From positions 12,838 to 76,837 of the forward strand of contig CANPVF010000123.1 in assembly GCA_947581645.1 (NCBI GenBank): 64,000 nt of DNA, given 5' to 3'. Each line of letters opens with the position of its first letter. The first letter of the stretch is position 1. A program made the translations under genes and the position numbers. Below, piece after piece: positions 38,404-55,746 of this stretch. This DNA is from Candidatus Caribbeanibacter nitroreducens. GTDB taxonomy: Bacteria; Gemmatimonadota; Gemmatimonadetes; Palauibacterales; Palauibacteraceae. The notes below the pieces were generated by a model. It saw only the letters and a list, made by a program, of their open reading frames with translations, was not told the DNA's origin and ran no database searches.

Positions 38404-38537
38404 GGGGGCGGGAAACTCCGCCGCGTCCCTCGATGCGGCAACCGTCCCTGTCGCCGCCCGCGGGCCGGCTCCATCTTGGCCGTCCGCGGACGGGCTCGAA
38501 TCGAGGCGGTGCGCCGGACAGGGAGAGGAGAGGCGAC

Positions 38538-39182
38538 GTGGCCGAGGCCAGGGGACCGGTGGGACCGGACGAGGCGTACGACATCCTGCGGGCGCTCAGC
38601 TCGCCGCTGGTGGCCATCACGACCCGCCGCGGCGACCGGGTGAACGGCATGATCGCCAACAGCGCGCTGCGCGCCTCCCTCGTCCCCGGCCGCCAGCGGG
38701 TGGCCAACTACGTCTTCAAGAAGCACCTGACCCACGAGCTCCTCGTGGAGACCGGCCGGTACGTGCTGCACCTCCTGGCCCGGGACCAGTGGGACGTGAT
38801 CCGCGCCCTGGGCTTCGAGTCCGGTCGGGAGCGCGACAAGATCGAGGACGTGCCGCATGGCTTCACGGACACCTGGCAGCTGCCCGTCCTCGAGGGCTGT
38901 GTGGCATGGATGCGGTGCGAGGTGGCCAACGTGATGGACACCGGCGCGTCGACCTTCTTCATGGGCGACATCCGCGAGGTGCACCGGGGGAGCGGGGACG
39001 AGGTGATGGACAGCGCGTACTTCCGCGAGAATGCCCCCGACGCGTGGGAGGAGCCCTACCGGCGAAACCTGCGGGAGACGCAGGAGCAGGCCCGCCGGAT
39101 GCAGGGAGAGATCGACGACCGCCCGTGGCGGCGGCTGAGGCGCTTCGGCGCGGACGGGGAGGGGACTGAGGGCGGCCCGTGA
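38538..39182 (+). CDS. flavin reductase-like (FMN-binding split-barrel) domain protein
   Basis: 'VAITTRRGDRVNGMIANS' and later blocks match the flavin_reduct family. GTG start with GGGAGAGGAGAGG RBS. Confidence 0.65.
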   Translation: MAEARGPVGPDEAYDILRALSSPLVAITTRRGDRVNGMIANSALRASLVPGRQRVANYVFKKHLTHELLVETGRYVLHLLARDQWDVIRALGFESGRERDKIEDVPHGFTDTWQLPVLEGCVAWMRCEVANVMDTGASTFFMGDIREVHRGSGDEVMDSAYFRENAPDAWEEPYRRNLRETQEQARRMQGEIDDRPWRRLRRFGADGEGTEGGP

Positions 39183-39296: not shown

Positions 39297-39380
39297 GCCG
39301 GGGTGGCGGAACTGGCATACGCAGCGGACTTAAAATCCGCCGGCCTTCGGGCCATGTGGGTTCAAATCCCGCCCCCGGCA
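39297..39380 (+). tRNA. tRNA-Leu (anticodon TAA), class II with long variable arm
   Basis: Manual cloverleaf: acceptor GCCGGGG/CCCCGGC, anticodon stem GCGGA/TCCGC with loop CTTAAAA (anticodon UAA), variable-arm hairpin GGCC-TTCG-GGCC, T-arm GTGGG-TTCAAAT-CCCGC, discriminator A. No encoded CCA. Confidence 0.8.
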
Positions 39381-39395
39381 CTGATGTCGGGTTCG

Positions 39396-40754
39396 CTATG
39401 ACCCGGATCCCGCCGCTCTCCGTCGTTGCGCGGCCGATCGGGGCGACGCCCCGTCCTCACGATCCACGTTCCCGGCCTCGCGGCTGGGGAGCCCCAGCTG
39501 CAGAGCGCGGGTGACGACTTCCGGGTCGAACTGCTCGCCCGCATTCTCCTCGAGCTCCTCTGCGACGACCGACGGCGGCAGCGGCGCCTGATAGGACCGC
39601 TCACTGCGCATGGCGTCGATCGCGTCGACGACACTGATGATGCGAGCCGGCAGTGGGATCTCCTCTCCCGCCAGGCCGTCCGGGTAGCCCGCGCCGTCCC
39701 AGCGCTCGTGATGGTGGCGTACGCCTCCGAGCACTTCGTCGTCCAGCGCCCGAACCTCCGACAGCAGCTCCTCGCCCCGGATGGGGTGCTGTTCGATCAG
39801 TTCCCGCTGCTCCTCGCTGAGAGGACCGTCCTTGGTGAGCACACCCTGAAAGATCATCTCCAGCTTTCCGATGTCGTGCAGCAGGGCGGCGTATTCGACC
39901 ACCTCCACCTCGGAGGCGCCGAGGTCCAGGACCTCTGCGATTTCCCGACAGCGCCGCGCCACGCGCACGGAGTGACCCGAGGTGTAGGGATCCTGCTTCT
40001 CGAGCAGGGTGACGAGCATGCCCACCAGATCCCAGAGGACCTCGTGCAGGTGGGTCTGAACGGTCGTGAAGACGTGGGCCGCGACCAGCGGCAGGCCGAG
40101 CAGGGGCAGGGCGAGGGCCCCCCAGTCCAGGTACAGGTGGACCACCAGGAACGTGAGCACGGCGACGCCAAGGTCGACGGCGATGTTCAGCTCGTCGCGG
40201 ACCTTCTTCCAGCTGAGCCACCATTCGTCCTCTCCGGTGGCCGTGATGATCGAGGCGTACGCAACCGTGTTGACCGCGAAGAAGGTCACCGTGGCGGCCA
40301 GGTACGCCACGAACGTCGGGGCGGGGCGCAGCTCGGCGCCGGATCCCACCGCCCCCCCGAGGAACACGTAGACCCCGGCCGCCAGCACGGCCGACAGACT
40401 GATCTGGGCGACGTTGAAGATGGTCCGGCGAGCGGGGCGGGCCCGGTAGAGCCCGAACACGAGCGGTCCGGAGAGCGCCACCAGTCCCGTCCCCGCCGGT
40501 CCGACGACGACCATGGCCGCCAGGATGGGAATGTGGTCCAGCATGATACGACTGCCGTGGCGGCGGTACTCCACCCCTGCCAGCTCGGAGACCACCGCGA
40601 GCGCGGCCAGGGCGGCAACGAGGGCCCACCACGTCGGGCGGGCGAGCGCGGGCCCGGCCGTCAGGACGGCGGCCGCGAGCGCCAGAGCGGCGATCCCGGC
40701 GGTTGCAGCGATCACCTGGCGCGGACGGAGCGTACGGAAGAGTTGCTGGGCCAC
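39396..40754 (-). CDS. HD-GYP domain protein with N-terminal multi-TM sensor domain (c-di-GMP phosphodiesterase family)
   Basis: C-terminal HD-GYP domain ('HSVRVARRCREIAE', 'AALLHDIGK', 'HHERWDGAGYPDGL'). About 6 N-terminal TM helices. Start uncertain: the track ORF extends to a GTG at 40898 with no RBS. Confidence 0.75.
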   Translation of the reverse strand: MAQQLFRTLRPRQVIAATAGIAALALAAAVLTAGPALARPTWWALVAALAALAVVSELAGVEYRRHGSRIMLDHIPILAAMVVVGPAGTGLVALSGPLVFGLYRARPARRTIFNVAQISLSAVLAAGVYVFLGGAVGSGAELRPAPTFVAYLAATVTFFAVNTVAYASIITATGEDEWWLSWKKVRDELNIAVDLGVAVLTFLVVHLYLDWGALALPLLGLPLVAAHVFTTVQTHLHEVLWDLVGMLVTLLEKQDPYTSGHSVRVARRCREIAEVLDLGASEVEVVEYAALLHDIGKLEMIFQGVLTKDGPLSEEQRELIEQHPIRGEELLSEVRALDDEVLGGVRHHHERWDGAGYPDGLAGEEIPLPARIISVVDAIDAMRSERSYQAPLPPSVVAEELEENAGEQFDPEVVTRALQLGLPSREAGNVDREDGASPRSAAQRRRAAGSGS

Positions 40755-41172
40755 GAACGTTGGAGGGCTCGGAGACCGGGGGCGGACACGTTCCGAACTG
40801 GCGCAGGCGACGTTCCGCCGCCGCCATCCCGTGAGGTCGGAGGGGTATAAGTACGTTTGCCGGACTACATGGGCCGCCTCCCGATATCCCCAACGCACAG
40901 AGGGTACATTGCCCCACGTAGAAAATGACGGCCATCTGTCAGCGGCCGGAACGGGGGCATCGGGATCCCGATTCGGTTGATGCTGTCACGAATGGGCTCG
41001 CAGAAGGAGCCGGGTCAGGGGCTGAGCCCGTCCGAAGGGGTGGCAGGATGCAAGGAGCCTTGAACATTGCGGGATAGATCGCCCTCGTGCCCCCGGTGGG
41101 CTGCGAGGTGCGCGTCCGTGCGGTACCGGATCAATCAATCAGGAGCGTCTCCCGTCTCCCAACGGGGAACGG

Positions 41173-47237: not shown

Positions 47238-47447
47238 GGGGGGTGGGACTGTGAGGAGCGAGGACGCAGAAACCGATGCGCGGACAGTCGCCGTGTTGCC
47301 GGTTCACAGGCTGTGCCAGTGGAAGGACGGCGGCCGACGAACGGTGAGCTTGCCACGGGGCAGAACGAGCCGGACAATCGGGTACGGCAGGGCTGGACCC
47401 CGATCACGATCGAGGCGAGCACCGTCGCTCGAGTCCCGGGAGGAGGC

Positions 47448-47894
47448 GTGCGGAAACGGTGTACGGCAATCGCGGCCGCGGCGCTCCTGGTCGCTGCGTG
47501 TGACATCGGCCCGACGGCGCCGGAGTCCCTCAGCCGGGCCGGCGGCGATCCGGTTCGCGTGGCGGGGTGGGTGATCTACGGCGCCCGGGAGGTCGCCCCG
47601 CGGAACATGTGGGAGCGGCAGTACAGGGGCGCGGACGAGGCCATCCGGGAGGCGGACGGGGACCTCTCGCGCGTGCGCTGGTTCCTGGCGGACTCGATGC
47701 GCGGCGAGGAGCGCATCTGGTACGCCCGGGGGCTGTGGCTGGAGCCGCACACGATCGTGATGGCACAGGAGGCCGCGGACAGCAGGACGGGGGTGTGCCA
47801 CGAATCCGTGCACGAGATCCTGCAGACCAGGGACCACGGAGAGCCCGTCTTCGATCGGTGCCCCTTCGACACGACGAGCGGAGGTGACGGATGA
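47448..47894 (+). CDS. hypothetical lipoprotein with HExxH motif
   Basis: GTG start with GGGAGGAGG RBS. Signal peptide with lipobox 'LLVAAC'. Contains 'VCHESVHEIL' (HExxH). Stop overlaps the next gene's start (ATGA). Confidence 0.45.
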   Translation: MRKRCTAIAAAALLVAACDIGPTAPESLSRAGGDPVRVAGWVIYGAREVAPRNMWERQYRGADEAIREADGDLSRVRWFLADSMRGEERIWYARGLWLEPHTIVMAQEAADSRTGVCHESVHEILQTRDHGEPVFDRCPFDTTSGGDG

Positions 47895-48466
47895 TCGACG
47901 TGCTGGGGTTCGCGGGGAGCCTGAGGAGCGGGTCCCTGAACCGGAAGCTGCTGGAGTCCGCGCAGCGGTGCGCTGCCGAGGGCCTCCGGATCGAGCGGTT
48001 CCCCATCGACGACATTCCGCTCTACGACGCGGATCGGGACACGGAGGAGCGCCGGCCCCGGCCCGTGCGGGAGTTCAAGCGCGCCATCGACGAGGCGGAC
48101 GCCCTCCTGGTGGCGACGCCGGAGTACAACCAGGGGCTGCCGGGCGTCACGAAGAACGCCATCGACTGGGCGTCGCGACCGGGCCGTGACTCCGTGCTGC
48201 GGGGAAAGCCCGCCGGCATCATGGGCGCCACCATGGGGCCCTGGGGGACCGCCCGCAGCCAGGAGCAGCTGAAGCTGGCCCTCTCGGCCCCGCTCGCCCG
48301 TGTGATGCCCCACCCGGGCCTGTACGTGCGGCGGGCGCACGAGAAGTTCGACGAGGACGGGCGGCTCGTGGACGACGAGACCCGCCGTCGGCTCACCGGG
48401 TACCTGGAGAAGCTGGGGGAATGGGTGCGAGAGGTGGGAGACGTGAAGGCGGGACGCCGGGGCTGA
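47891..48466 (+). CDS. NAD(P)H-dependent FMN reductase family protein
   Basis: Flavodoxin-like 'VLGFAGSLRSGSLNRKLL' N-terminus and 'ALLVATPEYNQGLPGVTKNAIDW' are typical of the NADPH-dependent FMN reductase family. Confidence 0.8.
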   Translation: MIDVLGFAGSLRSGSLNRKLLESAQRCAAEGLRIERFPIDDIPLYDADRDTEERRPRPVREFKRAIDEADALLVATPEYNQGLPGVTKNAIDWASRPGRDSVLRGKPAGIMGATMGPWGTARSQEQLKLALSAPLARVMPHPGLYVRRAHEKFDEDGRLVDDETRRRLTGYLEKLGEWVREVGDVKAGRRG

Positions 48467-48477
48467 GGGCCGCTCAC

Positions 48478-49113
48478 ATGGAGGGACGCCCCGACCCTGC
48501 CGACGCGGTCGACGACGCGCGTGCCGACGACCGCGGCGCGCTGGAGACGCTCCGGGAGGCCACCCGGGGCGAGCACGAGCGGACCGAGCGGGCCATCGAA
48601 GGCCGGTTCTTCGGCGCCTCCGGGGGCATCGACCGGCGGGGCTACCGCGCGCTCCTGGAGGCCTTCCTGGGGCTCTACCGGCCGCTGGACGAGCGACTCG
48701 TACCCGCGTCCCGGCGACACCTGGCCTCCCTCCGTTACCGGCGGCGCGCGGACCGGATCGAGCGGGACCTGAGAGTCCTCGGCTGCAGCGAGGATCACCT
48801 GGACGAGCTCCCGACGTTCCCCCGCGACGAGCTTCCGGACGTCGACGGGCCGCACCGGCTGCTGGGATGCCTCTACGTGGTCGAGGGATCGGAGCTCGGA
48901 GGCCGGGTGATCCGGAAGCGCCTGGAGAAGGAGCTGGACGACGACGCTCTCCGCGCGGACGCCTTCTTCGGCACGGACCCGGGCCGGGTCCGGGAGCGCT
49001 GGACCGAGTTCCGGGCGGAGCTCGAGGACCGGCTGGCTCCCGGCGGCCCGGTGGAGGAGGCGGCGGAGGCGGCCCGGGCCACGTTCGGCGCCTTCCGGAG
49101 GTGGATGTCGTGA
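48478..49113 (+). CDS. heme oxygenase (biliverdin-producing, BphO-like)
   Basis: 211-aa all-helical protein. 'LREATRGEHERTE' matches the proximal-His helix region of HemO/BphO. Its stop overlaps the GTG start of the phytochrome gene (GTGA), the classic bphO-bphP arrangement. Confidence 0.65.
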   Translation: MEGRPDPADAVDDARADDRGALETLREATRGEHERTERAIEGRFFGASGGIDRRGYRALLEAFLGLYRPLDERLVPASRRHLASLRYRRRADRIERDLRVLGCSEDHLDELPTFPRDELPDVDGPHRLLGCLYVVEGSELGGRVIRKRLEKELDDDALRADAFFGTDPGRVRERWTEFRAELEDRLAPGGPVEEAAEAARATFGAFRRWMS

Positions 49114-51257
49114 GCGATCGGACGTTCCGCACCACCGGCAGCCTGGCCGTCGAGCCGGACATCGACCTGGAGGCCTGTCACACGGATCCGATCCACCGGT
49201 TCGCCTCCATCCAGGGGCACGGGACGTTCCTGCAGGTGGACCCGCAGGAGAAGCGCGTCCTGTCGGTGGCCGCCAACGTGGCGGACTACCTGGACCGGCC
49301 GGCGGACGACGTCGTCGGCGCTTCGACGGCAGCCCTCTTCGACCGCGGGTTCACGGCCAGGATCGAGCACTGGCCCCGGGGCGGCCGATCCGTCCGGGAG
49401 CGGCTCGTCCACGAGGGTGCGACCGGACGGCTCTCGGTCACGCTCTTCCCGGTGGGCGACACCTCCGGGATGGAGATCGAGCGGGCGCCGAGCGGCGGGG
49501 ACGTCCCCGAGGAGCTGATGATCAACGCCCGTCCCACGCTGGACCGCCTCCGCGGCCTCGACTCCCGCGAGGAGCTCTTCGGGGAGAGCGTGCGCGCGGT
49601 CCGACGCGTCTCGGGCTTCGACCGTGTGATGATGTACCGGTTCGACGAGGACGGCCACGGCTCCGTCGTCGCCGAGGACCGTCGCGACGACGTGAAGTCC
49701 TACCTCGGCCAGCACTTTCCCGCCTCGGACATCCCGGAGCCCGCCCGGCGCCTCTATCGGACGAACGGGATCCGGTACATCCCGGACGTGGACTACGCCC
49801 CGGTGGCGATCACGGGCCCGCAGGGAAAACGCCGCCGGGAGGAGCTGGACCTGACGCACTCGTTCCTGCGGGGCGTGCCGGAAGTGCATCGCCAGTACCT
49901 CCGGAACATGGGAGTCGGGTCGTCCCTCTCGGTCGCCGTCGTGGCGGAGGGCGAGCTCTGGGGGCTCATCGCCTGCCACGGCGTCGAGGCCCGTCGGATC
50001 GGCTGGGCCAGACGGAGCCTGTGCGAGCTCATCGGATCCACGGTCTCGCAGCAGATCGAACGACTGCGTGCCGGAGAGGAGCGGCGTCGCCGCCAGAGCG
50101 TACACCGCCTGGAAGACCGGCTCGAGTCGCCGACGGATCACACCGATCTGTTCGAACAGCTCCGGAGCGAGAGGTCACGGCTCCTGTCGCTCGTGGACGC
50201 CACGGCCTTCTACCTCCGGTTCGCCGGCCAGTCGCTGTGGCTCGCCGAGGACGGGTCGAGCGAGCCGCCGGAGGGGCTCGTGGAGCACGCCTCGAGCCAG
50301 CTGGACGGGAGGAAGTCGGCGGCCGTCCGATCCATCGCCGGCGAGCTGGACGACCGGTGGGAGCACTCGGAGCGATTCAGCGGCCTCCTGGCCGTCCGCC
50401 TGGGGCACTCGCCCCGTCACTTCTGCGCCTGGTTCCGGCCGGAGCATCGGGAGTCCATCGAGTGGGGCGGGGACCCGAGGCAGCCGGCCCGGGTGGACCC
50501 GGAGGGCGGGCTCTCGCCGCGGGACTCCTTCGAGGCCTGGACGCAGATCGTCTCCGGGCGGGCCCCGCGGTGGACGGACATGGACCGGATCACGGCCCGG
50601 GAGCTGGCGAAGCTCCTGGACGAGATGTTCATCGAGGTCCAGTCACATCGCCTCCAGCGCGTCAACCAGCAGCTCACGGAGAGAAACGCCGCGCTCGAGC
50701 AGGCGAAGAGCAGCCTGGAGGAGGCCAACGCCCGGCGCGAAGAGCTGCTGGAGGAGATGAAGGAGCTGGCCCGGACGGACGAGCTGACGGGACTCGCCAA
50801 CCGCCGCGAGCTCATGCGTCGTCTGGACGAGGAGGTCGACCGCGCCCGCCGCTACGGCAACTCGCTCTCGCTCGCCATCCTGGACCTGGACCGCTTCAAG
50901 GACGTGAACGACCGTCACGGGCATCAGGTCGGCGACCGGGTCCTGCGGCGCGTCGGGAAGCTCCTGGAGGAACGGACGCGCTCGCCGGACGTGGCGGGGC
51001 GGTACGGCGGGGAGGAGTTCGGGCTCGTCCTCCCCGAATCCGCCGCGGAGGAGGCGGTGGCGCTGAGCGAGCGCATTCTGGAGCGTATCCGTGACCTGAC
51101 GTTCGAGGTGGACGGCCGGACGTTCGGCATCACGGCCAGCGTGGGTGTGGCCGAGCTCCGGGACGGGGAAGAGCCGACGGACCGGCTGATCCGGACGGCG
51201 GACGAGGCGCTGTACAGGGCCAAGGAGGAGGGAAGGGACCGGGTCGTAGCCGGCTGA
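49110..51257 (+). CDS. bphP: bacteriophytochrome photoreceptor with C-terminal GGDEF diguanylate cyclase output (PAS-GAF-PHY-GGDEF)
   Basis: N-terminal 'LEACHTDPIHRFASIQGHG' provides the biliverdin-binding Cys and PAS motif. GAF 'VMMYRFDEDGHGSVVAED...YLGQHFPASDIP', PHY domain, then 'GGEEFGLVL' GGDEF active site. Confidence 0.85.
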   Translation: MSDRTFRTTGSLAVEPDIDLEACHTDPIHRFASIQGHGTFLQVDPQEKRVLSVAANVADYLDRPADDVVGASTAALFDRGFTARIEHWPRGGRSVRERLVHEGATGRLSVTLFPVGDTSGMEIERAPSGGDVPEELMINARPTLDRLRGLDSREELFGESVRAVRRVSGFDRVMMYRFDEDGHGSVVAEDRRDDVKSYLGQHFPASDIPEPARRLYRTNGIRYIPDVDYAPVAITGPQGKRRREELDLTHSFLRGVPEVHRQYLRNMGVGSSLSVAVVAEGELWGLIACHGVEARRIGWARRSLCELIGSTVSQQIERLRAGEERRRRQSVHRLEDRLESPTDHTDLFEQLRSERSRLLSLVDATAFYLRFAGQSLWLAEDGSSEPPEGLVEHASSQLDGRKSAAVRSIAGELDDRWEHSERFSGLLAVRLGHSPRHFCAWFRPEHRESIEWGGDPRQPARVDPEGGLSPRDSFEAWTQIVSGRAPRWTDMDRITARELAKLLDEMFIEVQSHRLQRVNQQLTERNAALEQAKSSLEEANARREELLEEMKELARTDELTGLANRRELMRRLDEEVDRARRYGNSLSLAILDLDRFKDVNDRHGHQVGDRVLRRVGKLLEERTRSPDVAGRYGGEEFGLVLPESAAEEAVALSERILERIRDLTFEVDGRTFGITASVGVAELRDGEEPTDRLIRTADEALYRAKEEGRDRVVAG

Positions 51258-51272
51258 GCCGTCCCCGTCGCC

Positions 51273-51677
51273 TCAGCCGTGGCCGTGACCGTCCGCCGCG
51301 TCTCCCTCCCCGTGGTCGACCTCACGGGCCTCCGCCAGGTACATCCGGTTTCCGTCGGGGTCCTCGAAGTAGGCCAGGGGCACCGCGGTGTCCTCGGTGA
51401 GATCGGTGACGAAGGTCACGCCCCGATCCGACAGCTCGCTCACGACCCGTTCCAGGTCGCCGTCGACGTGGAAGCCCAGCGTCGTGGAGCCGGATTCGCC
51501 CACCGTGGCGCTGTCCATGGCGTCGTGCAGCCCCACGGCGAAGCCGTCGGGAGCCCGCACCACCGCCCATCCGGGGCCCGCCCGGTAGGCCAGATCCAGG
51601 CCCAGGGTCTCGGTGTAGAACTCCAGCGCCCGGTCCACGTCCGTGACGTAGACCGTGACCATGCCGCCGGTGATCAT
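51273..51677 (-). CDS. VOC-family (glyoxalase/bleomycin-resistance-like) protein
   Basis: 134-aa two-module beta-alpha-beta-beta-beta fold pattern ('VTVYVTDVDRALEFY', 'GFHVDGDLERVV'). Confidence 0.65.
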   Translation of the reverse strand: MITGGMVTVYVTDVDRALEFYTETLGLDLAYRAGPGWAVVRAPDGFAVGLHDAMDSATVGESGSTTLGFHVDGDLERVVSELSDRGVTFVTDLTEDTAVPLAYFEDPDGNRMYLAEAREVDHGEGDAADGHGHG

Positions 51678-51711: not shown

Positions 51712-52074
51712 TCAGCTGTCGGAGATCGTGTCCAGCGTCGAGCGGATCGACCGGAGCGTTCGGTGATACGCCGGATGGGTCTCGGCGCTCGGCAGGACCG
51801 CCTCCAGCTCGTCGAGCTGGCCCTGGATGCGCTGGCTGCGCTGCATCCTCTGCTCCCGCTCGGCGGGAGGCGCGGCGTAGACGGTCTCGGCCGGAGCGGC
51901 CCGGAGCTTCTCGACCGTGGACGAGAGCCGGGTGGTCTCCTGTCGCAGGGAGTCCGCCACGGAGACCGGTACCGTGCCCTGGCCGGCCCGATACCACATG
52001 AACCCCAGGACCACCGCCACCAGGGCGGCGATTGCGGTGAAGACCTTCCAGGGCGTCGCGTCTGAATCGCTCAT
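51712..52074 (-). CDS. hypothetical membrane-anchored protein
   Basis: Start overlaps the stop of the upstream S9 peptidase gene. One N-terminal TM then a helical region. No family. Confidence 0.4.
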   Translation of the reverse strand: MSDSDATPWKVFTAIAALVAVVLGFMWYRAGQGTVPVSVADSLRQETTRLSSTVEKLRAAPAETVYAAPPAEREQRMQRSQRIQGQLDELEAVLPSAETHPAYHRTLRSIRSTLDTISDS

Positions 52075-54197
52075 CGTGTTTCCTCGTCTTCGTTTCCGGG
52101 ACGCTCAGGCGCCGTCCAATCTTGCTGGCCCCGCACCCACTTCTGCAACCACCGGAGTTCCTCGATTCGCCGGGTGCGGTCGTGGCGGGGCTCCGAGATG
52201 CCGTGTCCCTCGCGCGGGAAGCGGATGAAGCGGGTCGGGACGTCGAACCACCGGAGCGCCTGGTGGAAGTTCATGGACTGCCCCATGGTGTCGATCCGGT
52301 CCTCCTCGCCGTGGAAGAGGATCGTCGGCGTCTCCACCTGGTCCATGTGGGTGTAGGAGGAGCGCTCGTCCCAGAACTCACCGTTGGACCAGGGATCGCC
52401 GCCCAGGTACCACCGGACGACGTCGTAGTGGAACCCCTGACCGAACTCGCTGGGCCAGTCCGACACCATGGCGCCGAGGCTCGCGGCCTCGAAGCGATCG
52501 GTCTGCGTGATCGTCCACCCGCCCAGGATCCCGCCGTAGCTCCATCCCTTGACAGCCAGGGAGTCGCCGTGGGCGACCCCGCGCTCCAGCATGTGGTCGA
52601 CGCCGGTCATCACGTCCCGGTAATCACCGCCTCCGATGTCCTCCATGTTGCCACGCAGGAACGCGTCCCCGTAGCCGGTGGAGCCGCGGACGTTGGGCTG
52701 GAGCACCGCGTACCCGTGGGCCGCCAGGACCTGGACGTCGGTGTCGAAGGAGCGGGTGAACACACCCGCCGGGCCGCCGTGGATGTTGACCACGAACGCG
52801 CCGGGACTCGACCAGCCGGCGGCCCGCCCGCCGCCGTCGGTCTCCGGCGGGCGCCAGAGAAGGCCCTCGATCTCGGTCCCGTCCTCGCTCGTCCAGTGGA
52901 CCTCCTCCGGCGTCGCCAGCGACTTCGCCTCCACGTCCGGGTTGGCCCGCGTCAGACGGGTGGGAGAGATCCGGCCGTCGCCTCCGGAGGGGAGGTCCGC
53001 CACGTAGAGGTCTCCGGGGCGCGTCGGCGTCTCCAGCGTGTAGGCCACGCGACCGCCGTCGCCGGTGAACGCGAAGTCGGCGGACCCCACGGTGCCCGCG
53101 TGCCGGGAGATCTGCCGCGGCTCGGAGCCGCTTTCCGGCCGTACCCGGTAGAGGTTGGACGTGGTGCTGTCCAGTGCGGTGAACAGGATCGATCTCCCGT
53201 CCGGCGACCAGCGATACTGGCCGATGGCCGGCTGGAAGTCCGCCAGGAGCTGGCGCGTCTCTCCGCTCTCCAGGTCCATGGCGTACAGGTTCCCCTGGTC
53301 CAGGCGCCAGTCCTGCCGGTCCGGCGCCATGAAGGTCAGGGTCTCCCCGTCCGGGCTCCACGCCGGATCGGACTCCGGGGCGTCGTTGTCGGTGAGCACG
53401 CGGATCTCCCCGCCCCCGCCCGGGACCACCGCGAGCTCCGCGTTGTTCGCGTCGTTCCGATGCTGCTCGGTGCGGAACGTGAAGGCCACGCGGCGACCCT
53501 CGGGCCCGACGGCGAAGTCGGCCACGGCCCGCTCACCCTCGGTGACGGGACGGGCCTCGCCGGAGTCCGGGTGTGCGGCGACGCGCCACAGGTTCGTCCA
53601 CCGGTGGCGGACCTGCCCGTTCGGTCCCTCGTTCACGAAGACCGCGTCGTAGCCGTTCTCCCGCCGCTCCTCCTCCTCGTCGGTGAGGCTGTCGTCGGCG
53701 GCGAAGTAGATGTGCTCGCCGTCGGGGCCCCAGCGATAGTCCCCGACGGAGGTGACGTGCTCGGTGAGCTGCCGGGCTTCGCCTCCGTCCGCGGGGAGCA
53801 GGAAGAGCTGGCGGACCTCGTCGTCTCCCTCGCCCGCCGGCCGGAGAAAGGCGAGCCACTCGCCGTCCGGCGACCAGCGCGGGGCGGCGTCGCCCTCCCC
53901 GGAGGTGTAGGGCCTCGCGTTCTCCCCGTCCGCTCCGACGATCCACAGGCGGCCGTCCCGCTCGTTGTCCTCCCAGTCGAGCTCGCTTCGGGCGTAGACC
54001 ACCTGCTCTCCGTCGGGGGAGAGGCGGGGGTTGCCGACGTCCACCAGGCCGATGGCATCGTCGACGGTGAACAGGTCGCCGGTGTCCGCCGCCGCGGCGG
54101 GGCCGGGTCCGGGCGACGCGGCTGCGGCGTCGGGAGCCGGGACCAGCATCAGGGACGTGGCCAGGAGGGCGATCAGGGGGCGCGTACGGCTCGTCAT
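52071..54197 (-). CDS. S9-family serine peptidase with N-terminal beta-propeller (prolyl oligopeptidase / acylaminoacyl-peptidase-like), secreted
   Basis: Signal peptide, repeated propeller blades, and a C-terminal alpha/beta-hydrolase with 'GWSYGG' nucleophile elbow. Confidence 0.85.
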   Translation of the reverse strand: MTSRTRPLIALLATSLMLVPAPDAAAASPGPGPAAAADTGDLFTVDDAIGLVDVGNPRLSPDGEQVVYARSELDWEDNERDGRLWIVGADGENARPYTSGEGDAAPRWSPDGEWLAFLRPAGEGDDEVRQLFLLPADGGEARQLTEHVTSVGDYRWGPDGEHIYFAADDSLTDEEEERRENGYDAVFVNEGPNGQVRHRWTNLWRVAAHPDSGEARPVTEGERAVADFAVGPEGRRVAFTFRTEQHRNDANNAELAVVPGGGGEIRVLTDNDAPESDPAWSPDGETLTFMAPDRQDWRLDQGNLYAMDLESGETRQLLADFQPAIGQYRWSPDGRSILFTALDSTTSNLYRVRPESGSEPRQISRHAGTVGSADFAFTGDGGRVAYTLETPTRPGDLYVADLPSGGDGRISPTRLTRANPDVEAKSLATPEEVHWTSEDGTEIEGLLWRPPETDGGGRAAGWSSPGAFVVNIHGGPAGVFTRSFDTDVQVLAAHGYAVLQPNVRGSTGYGDAFLRGNMEDIGGGDYRDVMTGVDHMLERGVAHGDSLAVKGWSYGGILGGWTITQTDRFEAASLGAMVSDWPSEFGQGFHYDVVRWYLGGDPWSNGEFWDERSSYTHMDQVETPTILFHGEEDRIDTMGQSMNFHQALRWFDVPTRFIRFPREGHGISEPRHDRTRRIEELRWLQKWVRGQQDWTAPERPGNEDEETR

Positions 54198-54314: not shown

Positions 54315-54785
54315 TCATCTGTTCCGTCCCGGCAGGTCGTCCGGGAGTCGTTCGAGGCCCCCGGAGGCCATGGACCAGTCGATCAGGAGCTGACGCGCCT
54401 CCTCGGAGAGTCGCGCCTCCGGATGCATGATCCGGTAGCTCGTCGGGGGCATGGCGTCGCTCTCCACCTCGTCGCCGATCTCGCCGATCAGGTCGCGGGC
54501 CTCCTCCGGGTCGGTGGGCCAGTCCGTGAGGTTCATGTGCTCGCGGCCCTGGTGGACGTCGTTGGCGACGTACCAGGAGACGGGCGCCACGCGGCTGTAC
54601 CAGGGCCAGTCGGTGCGGTTCGAGTGGCAGTCCCAGCACGCACGGCGCAGGACGCTGTCCACGTCGGCCGGGGCACTGATCACATTCTCCACCGGCGGAT
54701 TCGTCCGGTCGACGGGCACGAACTGTATGCCGACGACCGCGACGACCAGGAGGCCGCCGGCGATCTTCCACCACGAGCGGTCCAT
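54315..54785 (-). CDS. haem-binding domain protein (single CxxCH)
   Basis: N-terminal TM anchor and a 'CWDCHS' heme c-binding motif. Size and motif fit the Haem_bd family as recalled. Confidence 0.6.
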   Translation of the reverse strand: MDRSWWKIAGGLLVVAVVGIQFVPVDRTNPPVENVISAPADVDSVLRRACWDCHSNRTDWPWYSRVAPVSWYVANDVHQGREHMNLTDWPTDPEEARDLIGEIGDEVESDAMPPTSYRIMHPEARLSEEARQLLIDWSMASGGLERLPDDLPGRNR

Positions 54786-54942: not shown

Positions 54943-55746
54943 ATGAAGCCGACGACCGCCACCCGCGTCTTCGCCCTGGCCGCCGCACTCCTCCTGACCG
55001 GCTCCTCCCCAGCGGCTGCCCAGGAGTTCCAGTGGCCCGACGAGCCGGAGAACCTGGAGGTGCTCCCGGACACCCTCGGGCCCGACGGCCTCCGCCGAAC
55101 CATGGGCCACTTCACCGAAGCGCTGGGAGTCCGGTGCTCGTACTGCCACGTCGGGGAGGAGGGCGCGCCGCTGTCCGAGTACGACTTCGCCTCCGACGAC
55201 AACGACCACAAGCAGGCGGCCCGGGTGATGCTCCGGATGGTCGAGGCCATCAACTCCGAACACCTGGAGCAGCTGGAGCACGAGCACCAGGGCGAGGGGC
55301 ACGCCCAAGCCGGCTACACGCTCCCCGCGGACCGGGAGGTGAACTGCATCACCTGCCACCGCGGGACCGACCGTCCGGCCATGATCGAGGACGTGCTGGC
55401 GGGGGTCATCGAGCGGGACGGCGTCGGGGCCGCCGTGAAGCGATACGAGCAGCTCCGGGAGGAGTACTACGGCAGCTTCGCCTACGATTTCACGGTGGGT
55501 CCGCTGAGCGAGCTCGCCCGCAACCTGGCGACCCGCGGGCAGACGGACGCCGCGGTCCGGATGGCGGAGCTCGAGGTGAAGCATCACCAGGAGAGCTACC
55601 GGGCTCACTTCGTGCTGGCCCAGATGCTGGATCAGGCCGGAGACCGGGAGCGCGCCGTGGAGAGCATACAGCGGGCTCTGGACCTGGCCCCCGACGAGGC
55701 CCGATCGTTCCTCCAGCGGCAGCTGGAGCGCATTCGCGGCGGCTGA
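54943..55746 (+). CDS. secreted di-heme c-type cytochrome with C-terminal TPR-like region
   Basis: Signal peptide and two CxxCH motifs ('CSYCH', 'CITCH'), then a C-terminal helical repeat. Divergent from the Haem_bd gene. Confidence 0.6.
   Translation: MKPTTATRVFALAAALLLTGSSPAAAQEFQWPDEPENLEVLPDTLGPDGLRRTMGHFTEALGVRCSYCHVGEEGAPLSEYDFASDDNDHKQAARVMLRMVEAINSEHLEQLEHEHQGEGHAQAGYTLPADREVNCITCHRGTDRPAMIEDVLAGVIERDGVGAAVKRYEQLREEYYGSFAYDFTVGPLSELARNLATRGQTDAAVRMAELEVKHHQESYRAHFVLAQMLDQAGDRERAVESIQRALDLAPDEARSFLQRQLERIRGG

Follow-up and report, generated by a model that had tools for sequence, protein, structure and literature searches.

The window analysed here is a 64,000-nucleotide stretch of contig CANPVF010000123.1 (assembly GCA_947581645.1) from the Gemmatimonadota bacterium Candidatus Caribbeanibacter nitroreducens. 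At positions 47448–51257 its plus strand carries a chain of four open reading frames (ORFs) that encode a small lipoprotein, a flavin mononucleotide (FMN) reductase, a heme oxygenase (HO) and a PAS-GAF-PHY-GGDEF phytochrome of the PadC type. We consider it highly probable that the functional core of the chain is the two-gene HO-PadC unit, and that the lipoprotein and the reductase, which are probably on the same transcript in this genome, are nevertheless separate evolutionary and functional units. Only the HO and the phytochrome behave as a functional pair, because related genomes have lost the reductase or the lipoprotein independently of the two. The first-pass annotation had joined all four genes into one light to cyclic di-GMP (c-di-GMP) module in which the reductase was a dedicated electron donor to the HO. 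The HO-PadC pair belongs to a well-known kind of system, and the dedicated coupling of the reductase fails when co-occurrence is examined.

The comparison was made using contigs fetched for the close homologues of the lipoprotein and the reductase, which provided ten lineages with the same chromosomal slot; the relatives are all short assembled metagenome contigs, numbered here with the prefix L. The slot is bordered on one side by a divergent ABC transporter gene on the minus strand, and on the other by a convergent glyoxalase/VOC-family gene (minus strand, 51273–51677; PF00903, E = 5e-13), a gene for a 120-aa protein and an S9 peptidase gene. The glyoxalase gene lies outside the module and is found beside the slot in all related contigs of sufficient length. 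All four genes are present in the window and L088, and in L089/90. The reductase is missing from L081–83 and from L086, where the lipoprotein gene is followed by HO-PadC, and the lipoprotein is missing from L091, which has the order reductase-HO-PadC. L092/93 and L142 contain just the lipoprotein and the reductase, and L084/85, L143 and L146/147 just the lipoprotein; L087 shows the lipoprotein and reductase genes and then ends. The lipoprotein is thus present in nine of the ten lineages. Across the ten, the reductase and the HO-PadC pair are uncorrelated, with both present in three, HO-PadC only in two, the reductase only in two and neither in three. The HO and PadC, by comparison, are kept or lost together in all ten lineages, and PadC is full length and 84% identical in lineages without the reductase or the lipoprotein.

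These differences are read as deletions because remnants of the missing genes have been left behind, as revealed by DNA alignments to the window. L081 lacks window positions 47957–48424 and retains the first 66 nt and the last 42 nt of the reductase gene, and L086 lacks 47922–48510, with deletion end points unlike those of L081. The reductase has been deleted twice independently with HO-PadC left intact (L081–83 and L086). In L091 the lipoprotein gene is reduced to its last 20 codons. In L146 the missing segment is approximately 47883–51196, and the final 61 nt of PadC survive; the reductase gene has left its first 26 nt in L143, and the L142 alignment extends 24 nt beyond the reductase stop into the start of the HO gene. 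L092 lacks exactly 48468–51271, with no remnant visible in the alignment. Since L146 retains the PadC 3' end, L142 retains 24 nt of the reductase-HO junction and L143 the 5' end of the reductase gene, the four-gene state is probably ancestral for most of the clade, with the locus decaying by deletion. A single late insertion of HO-PadC, which was first hinted at by a midpoint-rooted tree of the lipoprotein, was dropped as an explanation because the remnants in these same three contigs argue for deletion. The locus carries a caution: overlaps and tight packing suggested a four-gene "module", and the deletions found in nature among sister lineages split it into three independent units.

The slot (47883–51272) is also a deletion hot spot, with at least six deletions with differing end points, and several stubs of 26–66 nt in the sister lineages. 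The reductase remnant in L081 (955–1080) forms a 41-codon ORF that runs from the old ATGA overlap with the lipoprotein gene to a GTGA overlap with the HO start, and it is possible that translational coupling from the lipoprotein to the HO is preserved there. The 3' ends of the reductase gene (48456–48467, GCCGGGGCTGAG) and of the PadC gene (51249–51258, GCCGGCTGAG) resemble each other and flank exactly the segment absent from L092. This similarity, GCCGG(GG)CTGAG, was considered as a deletion or insertion site and put aside, as it is too short to weigh in DNA of 72% GC.

In the window itself, direct reading of the sequence confirms four consecutive plus-strand genes with overlapping starts and stops. 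The lipoprotein stop and the reductase start overlap in an ATGA (47891–47894) that is preceded by GGAGG 6 nt upstream, and the HO stop overlaps the GTG start of the phytochrome in a GTGA (49110–49113), both as the first-pass annotation had placed them. The gap before the HO gene, given there as 12 nt, is 11 nt long, with the reductase stop at 48464–48466 and the HO ATG at 48478. The third-position GC content is 0.87–0.93 across all four ORFs, and the window has 70–75% GC throughout. A sigma-70-like promoter match (TTGCCA-17-GACAAT; plus strand, 47350–47378) sits about 70 nt 5' of the lipoprotein start and is a candidate operon promoter, and no terminator-like site was found in a scan of the four-gene chain. 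Together, the overlaps, the lack of a terminator-like site and the promoter-like site 5' of the lipoprotein start indicate that the four genes are likely co-transcribed in this genome. The promoter scan matches consensus sequences only, and returned two matches in the region compared with 0.1 expected from shuffles. The second of these, at 47866–47895, falls on the junction of the lipoprotein and reductase genes, and therefore a separate start at this junction is possible.

The domain assignments made previously for the four proteins hold, with the Pfam matches of the reductase, the HO and the phytochrome far above the curated cut-offs, and the quoted motifs are all present (LEACHTDPIH with Cys23 and GGEEF at residues 633–637 in the phytochrome, and HESVH in the lipoprotein). 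The reductase (plus strand, 47891–48466; 191 aa) matches PF03358 (FMN_red) over the full domain with E = 3e-36 and 124.6 bits against a cut-off of 24. Its closest solved relatives are PA1204 (1RTT; E = 1e-37 over 182 residues), YieF (3SVL; E = 4e-28) and a chromate reductase (4HS4; E = 3e-21), which are soluble NAD(P)H-dependent FMN reductases of the quinone/chromate reductase kind. It is not an SsuE, MsuE or ArsH equivalog, as its NCBIfam scores are 27.5 bits versus 292, 27.0 versus 164 and 24.7 versus 212, respectively. Among the candidates scored there are 7368 homologues at E ≤ 1e-20, about a dozen of them more than 68% identical, and JGI labels reductase homologues as 'chromate reductase / NAD(P)H dehydrogenase (quinone)'. 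By sequence it is a generic NAD(P)H-dependent enzyme of the ChrR/YieF/PA1204 class. What sets it apart from that class is its operon position beside a heme oxygenase, which is unusual, yet variable within the lineage.

The strongest rival to our interpretation is that this co-transcribed reductase is the dedicated, NADPH-driven donor of the HO, so that three or four genes make up a self-sufficient light-to-c-di-GMP module. Heme oxygenase catalysis requires seven electrons, and flavoproteins can serve bacterial HOs. The proposal is also favored by the tight packing of genes with no terminator-like site between them, by the order reductase-HO-PadC kept in the window/L088, L089 and L091, and by the remnants that point to an ancestral four-gene state. 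Several of these observations weigh against treating the reductase as a separate unit: it is tightly packed with the HO in the window and in L089 (ATGA overlap, 11-nt gap) and its order with HO-PadC is retained in L091, so that the genes are probably co-expressed in three lineages, and a heme oxygenase cannot work without a reductant. Additionally, genomes without the operon copy may carry a second reductase copy elsewhere, the relatives being short contigs. We nonetheless regard a dedicated donor as unlikely. The enzyme was deleted twice with HO-PadC intact, it occurs without HO-PadC in L092/93 and L142, and co-occurrence of the FMN reductase with bphO-bphP across the ten related lineages yields no association, as the even two-by-two count above makes plain. 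The same is seen further afield, where no reductase homologue was detected near the HO in any of 48 distant HO loci (tblastn, E ≤ 1e-3) or near the phytochrome in any of 13 loci of other taxa whose photosensory core matched (tblastn, E ≤ 1e-5), giving 0 of 61 loci outside the slot. The sheer number of homologues of this generic class argues in the same direction. No paper in the library searched joins a bacteriophytochrome, a heme oxygenase and an FMN reductase, and the only relevant result of a broader search for electron donors of HOs was the FNR-HO system of Leptospira.

The earlier claim of a dedicated donor is accordingly not supported. Because the lipoprotein, the reductase and HO-PadC have each been deleted alone, with the others intact, in sister lineages, the reductase appears to be at most an optional reductant of the HO. 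We give little weight even to the narrower proposal that this ChrR-class enzyme is a facultative, operon-encoded reductant of a BphO-type HO in those lineages that keep it; if true, electrons would reach the HO by a flavoprotein route that is not known from bacteriophytochrome systems. An unrelated flavin reductase (PF01613, Flavin_Reduct, E = 3e-25) is encoded about 9 kb upstream on the plus strand (38433–39182), beside SURF1 and cytochrome oxidase genes, and its claim to be the HO reductant is no better and no worse than that of the operon reductase.

The HO-PadC pair that we favor as the functional core begins with a BphO-type heme oxygenase of 211 aa (plus strand, 48478–49113). The protein matches PF01126 (Heme_oxygenase) with E = 2e-13 and 50.9 bits against a cut-off of 23, and the match covers positions 4–202 of the 204-position profile. 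Its structural matches, to HemO (1J77), Leptospira HO (5KZL) and HO-1, are weak, with the best match in the PDB at E = 1e-3, and its sequence places it as a divergent member of the family. His33, located within LREATRGEHERTE, aligns with the histidine of the KEATKEVH segment of HO-1 and with that of Leptospira HO, and is presumably the heme ligand. The distal-helix motif LYVVEGSELGG aligns with LYCAEGSNLGA of HemO, and both His33 and EGSELGG are invariant in five HO orthologues.

In bphO-bphP operons, such as those of Deinococcus radiodurans and Pseudomonas aeruginosa, the HO gene lies directly upstream of the bacteriophytochrome gene. The same arrangement is seen here, with the HO gene immediately upstream and a 4-nt stop/start overlap. 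It is also seen in the 48 distant loci, which are metagenome loci with HOs 28–43% identical to this one: a phytochrome gene adjoins the HO gene in about two thirds of them, mostly directly downstream on the same strand, and the HO-then-phytochrome order holds in most of those in which a phytochrome was detected. The bphO-bphP pairing recognized in the first-pass annotation was therefore right, on the grounds of the GTGA overlap, the co-inheritance in ten lineages and the adjacency in distant HO loci. The differences from the textbook operons are that the output is a diguanylate cyclase and not a histidine kinase, and that the HO is divergent. As the phytochrome aligns with a characterized PadC and retains its motifs, we read the pair as an ordinary bphO-bphP-type light-to-c-di-GMP unit with a PadC-type output.

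The phytochrome (plus strand, 49110–51257; 715 aa) contains, in order, PAS_2 (39.9 bits, E = 8e-10), GAF (55.7 bits, E = 1e-14), PHY (105.2 bits, E = 3e-30) and GGDEF (PF00990; 154.7 bits, E = 2e-45), all far above the curated cut-offs. With no other Pfam domain present, the photosensory core is fused directly to a single GGDEF through a coiled-coil linker. Among solved structures its closest relative is IsPadC, a phytochrome-activated diguanylyl cyclase from Idiomarina sp. A28L (PDB 5LLW, 5LLX and 6ET7; Gourinchas et al. 2017, PMC5336353). A phmmer alignment to 5LLW joins residues 20–713 to residues 16–683 with E = 6e-86, so that the two proteins align from end to end with an identical architecture and nothing added. 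The phytochrome-GGDEF reading of the earlier annotation, which had cited BphG, is thus borne out by the Pfam domains and this full-length alignment; BphG-type phytochrome-GGDEF proteins are a further close known kind.

The two PadC proteins have a set of functional motifs in common: an N-terminal cysteine, the DIP motif, the PRxSF/WGG tongue, an asparagine pair in the linker, DxLT, GG(D/E)EF and an RxxD I-site. In the window protein the predicted site of biliverdin attachment is Cys23 in the N-terminal extension (codon at 49176–49178, plus strand), where LEACHTDPIH aligns with IAACDQEPIH of IsPadC. Chromophore-pocket residues are retained (D207-I-P, H260 and H290), as are the tongue motifs of the PHY domain (W452GG and PRDSF470). 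The I-site RSPD (residues 624–627) and the active-site GGEEF (residues 633–637) are encoded at 50979–51020 on the plus strand, with the I-site standing five residues before GGEEF633. From these family assignments, which hold at the level of sequence, we infer a light response along the following lines. The HO would cleave heme to biliverdin, which would be attached to Cys23 of PadC; red/far-red photoconversion would then be relayed by the PHY tongue and the coiled-coil linker to the C-terminal GGDEF and change c-di-GMP synthesis, by activation or inhibition, with the RxxD I-site providing product inhibition.

The similarity to IsPadC is moderate at the sequence level, and one difference lies in the sensor-effector linker. 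This coiled coil, which was judged from heptad register and motifs, spans approximately residues 497–556 (50598–50777, plus strand) and ends at DELT557. The phmmer gap shows that it is about 21 residues, or three heptads (3 × 7), longer than the linker of IsPadC, and it includes the stretch VNQQLTERN with two asparagines spaced seven residues apart. Natural PadC linkers differ by one or two heptads, and the conserved asparagine pair and heptad-wise variation in linker length are described features of these proteins (PMC5336353). Linker length and composition set the sign of the light response and its dynamic range. Because the make-up of the linker can invert the response or blunt it (PMC5336353), its sign in this protein is not predictable from sequence. 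The host also differs from that of IsPadC, being a Gemmatimonadota bacterium with a 72% GC genome, and the HO-PadC pair thereby adds a high-GC PadC from this phylum to a family used for near-infrared optogenetics. The closest phytochrome among species-representative genomes is only 33% identical, so this lineage has no representative among them, and the nearest homologues that carry a name point to Gemmatimonadota. It is highly improbable that the phytochrome is degenerate or light-insensitive, or that its GGDEF is only a c-di-GMP receptor with no light-driven synthesis, since the departure of the surroundings of the cysteine (CHTDPIHRFASIQGHG) from the usual C-x-x-EPIH-IPG-x-IQP-x-G of IsPadC, and a linker some three heptads longer whose composition could alter the response, are outweighed by chromophore-pocket, tongue, A-site and I-site motifs that are all intact where checked, by a protein kept full length, at 84–93% identity, in all four sister contigs with a complete copy of the gene, and by its invariable pairing with an intact HO.

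The first gene of the chain (plus strand, 47448–47894) encodes a lipoprotein of 148 aa with an HExxH motif, as seen from its sequence, a family alignment and a predicted model. Its N-terminus, MRKRCTAIAAAALLVAAC, fits the lipobox [LVI][ASTVI][GAS]C as LVAAC with Cys18; the signal peptide and lipobox were read by motif. The protein has no Pfam or NCBIfam match, and a Pfam scan of 11 family members at E ≤ 10 produced only noise. A search of 5.8 billion proteins found just ten close homologues, each on a short assembled contig, and an exhaustive profile search at E ≤ 1e-3 expanded these to a family with 155 representatives when clustered at 50% identity. Almost all members are 100–190 residues long, and most of those inspected start with a signal peptide and a lipobox-type cysteine. 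In an alignment of 146 family sequences H118 and H122 are invariant, and C18 of the lipobox, W78, G95, I103, E119, H130 and C138 are conserved in at least 90%, which defines the motif HExxH-x7-H...C. The conserved candidate for a third metal ligand in the alignment is His130, eight residues past His122. Most of the family also has a cysteine in an 'ExC' near position 63; the subfamily of the window lacks it and has Cys117 beside His118 instead. The sources describe the eight family members that were looked up only as 'hypothetical protein', and the single named organism is a Gemmatimonadetes metagenome-assembled genome.

An AlphaFold model of the lipoprotein built on 11 close homologues was unusable, with a predicted local distance difference test (pLDDT) score of 39, and was replaced by one built on the 146-sequence alignment, which has a pLDDT of 92.1 and a predicted template-modeling score of 0.82. 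This model predicts seven short beta-strands followed by the HExxH helix, with the helix packed against a mixed beta-sheet. A Foldseek search of the model against the PDB returns nothing significant (E ≥ 0.75). There is no detectable sequence similarity between the lipoprotein and the minigluzincins (projannalysin 4JIX, proabylysin 4JIU and selecase 4QHF), nor with snapalysin, YbeY and SprT/Wss1, which are other small HExxH proteins. Gluzincins and minigluzincins are defined by a glutamate zinc ligand on a following 'glutamate helix', whereas the likely third ligand here is a histidine eight residues past the second histidine of HExxH, a spacing that is also unlike the HExxHxxGxxH of metzincins. 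Filing the lipoprotein as a minigluzincin was for this reason not adopted. It further departs from minimal zincins in being lipid-anchored and exported, with a conserved cysteine pair and with putative metal binding and activity. Based on the model, we read it as an exported, lipid-anchored, minimal zincin-like protein that is a syntenic neighbor and not a component of the photoreceptor. Whether it is the first member of a new lipid-anchored family of minimal zincins, with HExxH-x7-H and about 100 mature residues and unrelated in sequence to the catalogued peptidase families, we judge to be nearly evenly balanced, leaning slightly against; the evidence favors this proposal over that of the facultative reductant. 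As a by-product, the predicted fold gives confident structural placement to a family of HExxH lipoproteins that are very small and lack annotation, and that could be a new minimal metallopeptidase scaffold.

The first-pass annotation had called this protein an unexplained HExxH partner; the HExxH motif stands and the protein can now be described as minimal zincin-like, but it is not a partner, as it is kept without HO-PadC and lost where HO-PadC is kept. These losses bear directly on the proposal that all four genes act jointly, for example with light or c-di-GMP controlling an exported zincin-like lipoprotein that releases or processes a source of heme or a target in the envelope. The lipoprotein gene opens the chain, with its stop overlapping the start of the reductase gene, and its presence in nine of ten lineages would suit such a role. 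It persists alone, however, in L084, L143 and L146, and L091 has lost it and kept HO-PadC. Furthermore, a 39%-identical family member in L144 adjoins neither a reductase nor a photoreceptor, tblastn detected no homologue of the lipoprotein in the 61 HO and bacteriophytochrome loci of other taxa (48 + 13), and the lipoprotein is exported, unlike the three cytoplasmic proteins encoded after it. Joint action of the four genes is therefore very improbable, and the HO-PadC pair remains our preferred functional unit.

The surroundings of the chain include one further gene with a possible link to c-di-GMP. A membrane HD-GYP protein, possibly a c-di-GMP phosphodiesterase, is encoded on the minus strand at 39396–40898 (HD_5, E = 1e-33; HD341, HHE396 and GYP404), with a weak MASE9 match at its N-terminus. 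The gene noted upstream in the first-pass annotation thus exists, at a distance of 6.5–8 kb and not 9 kb. A tRNA gene on the plus strand (39297–39380), the only Rfam match in the window, lies 16 nt away from the HD-GYP gene, on its 3' side. No photosynthesis gene cluster, PilZ gene or further GGDEF/EAL gene was seen in the scanned parts of the window, and phytochromes are common in non-phototrophs.

The other upstream genes encode cytochrome oxidase subunit I, a heme O synthase-like UbiA protein, SURF1, an ABC exporter, the Flavin_Reduct protein and beta-oxidation enzymes. Downstream are genes for the S9 peptidase, a haem-binding protein, a cytochrome c-TPR protein, a tandem Usp protein and a LuxR-type two-component pair. 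The haem-binding protein (PF14376, Haem_bd; minus strand, 54315–54785) is encoded divergently from the CytoC_RC-like heme-binding and TPR protein (plus strand, 54946–55746), and this pair, which is conserved in L092/93, together with the oxidase genes makes the neighborhood rich in heme proteins. The 120-aa protein next to the slot (minus strand, 51712–52074) has no Pfam match, and its gene overlaps by 4 nt the start of the S9 prolyl-oligopeptidase-family gene (minus strand, 52071–54197); the two are conserved as a pair in L088, L089 and L092/93.

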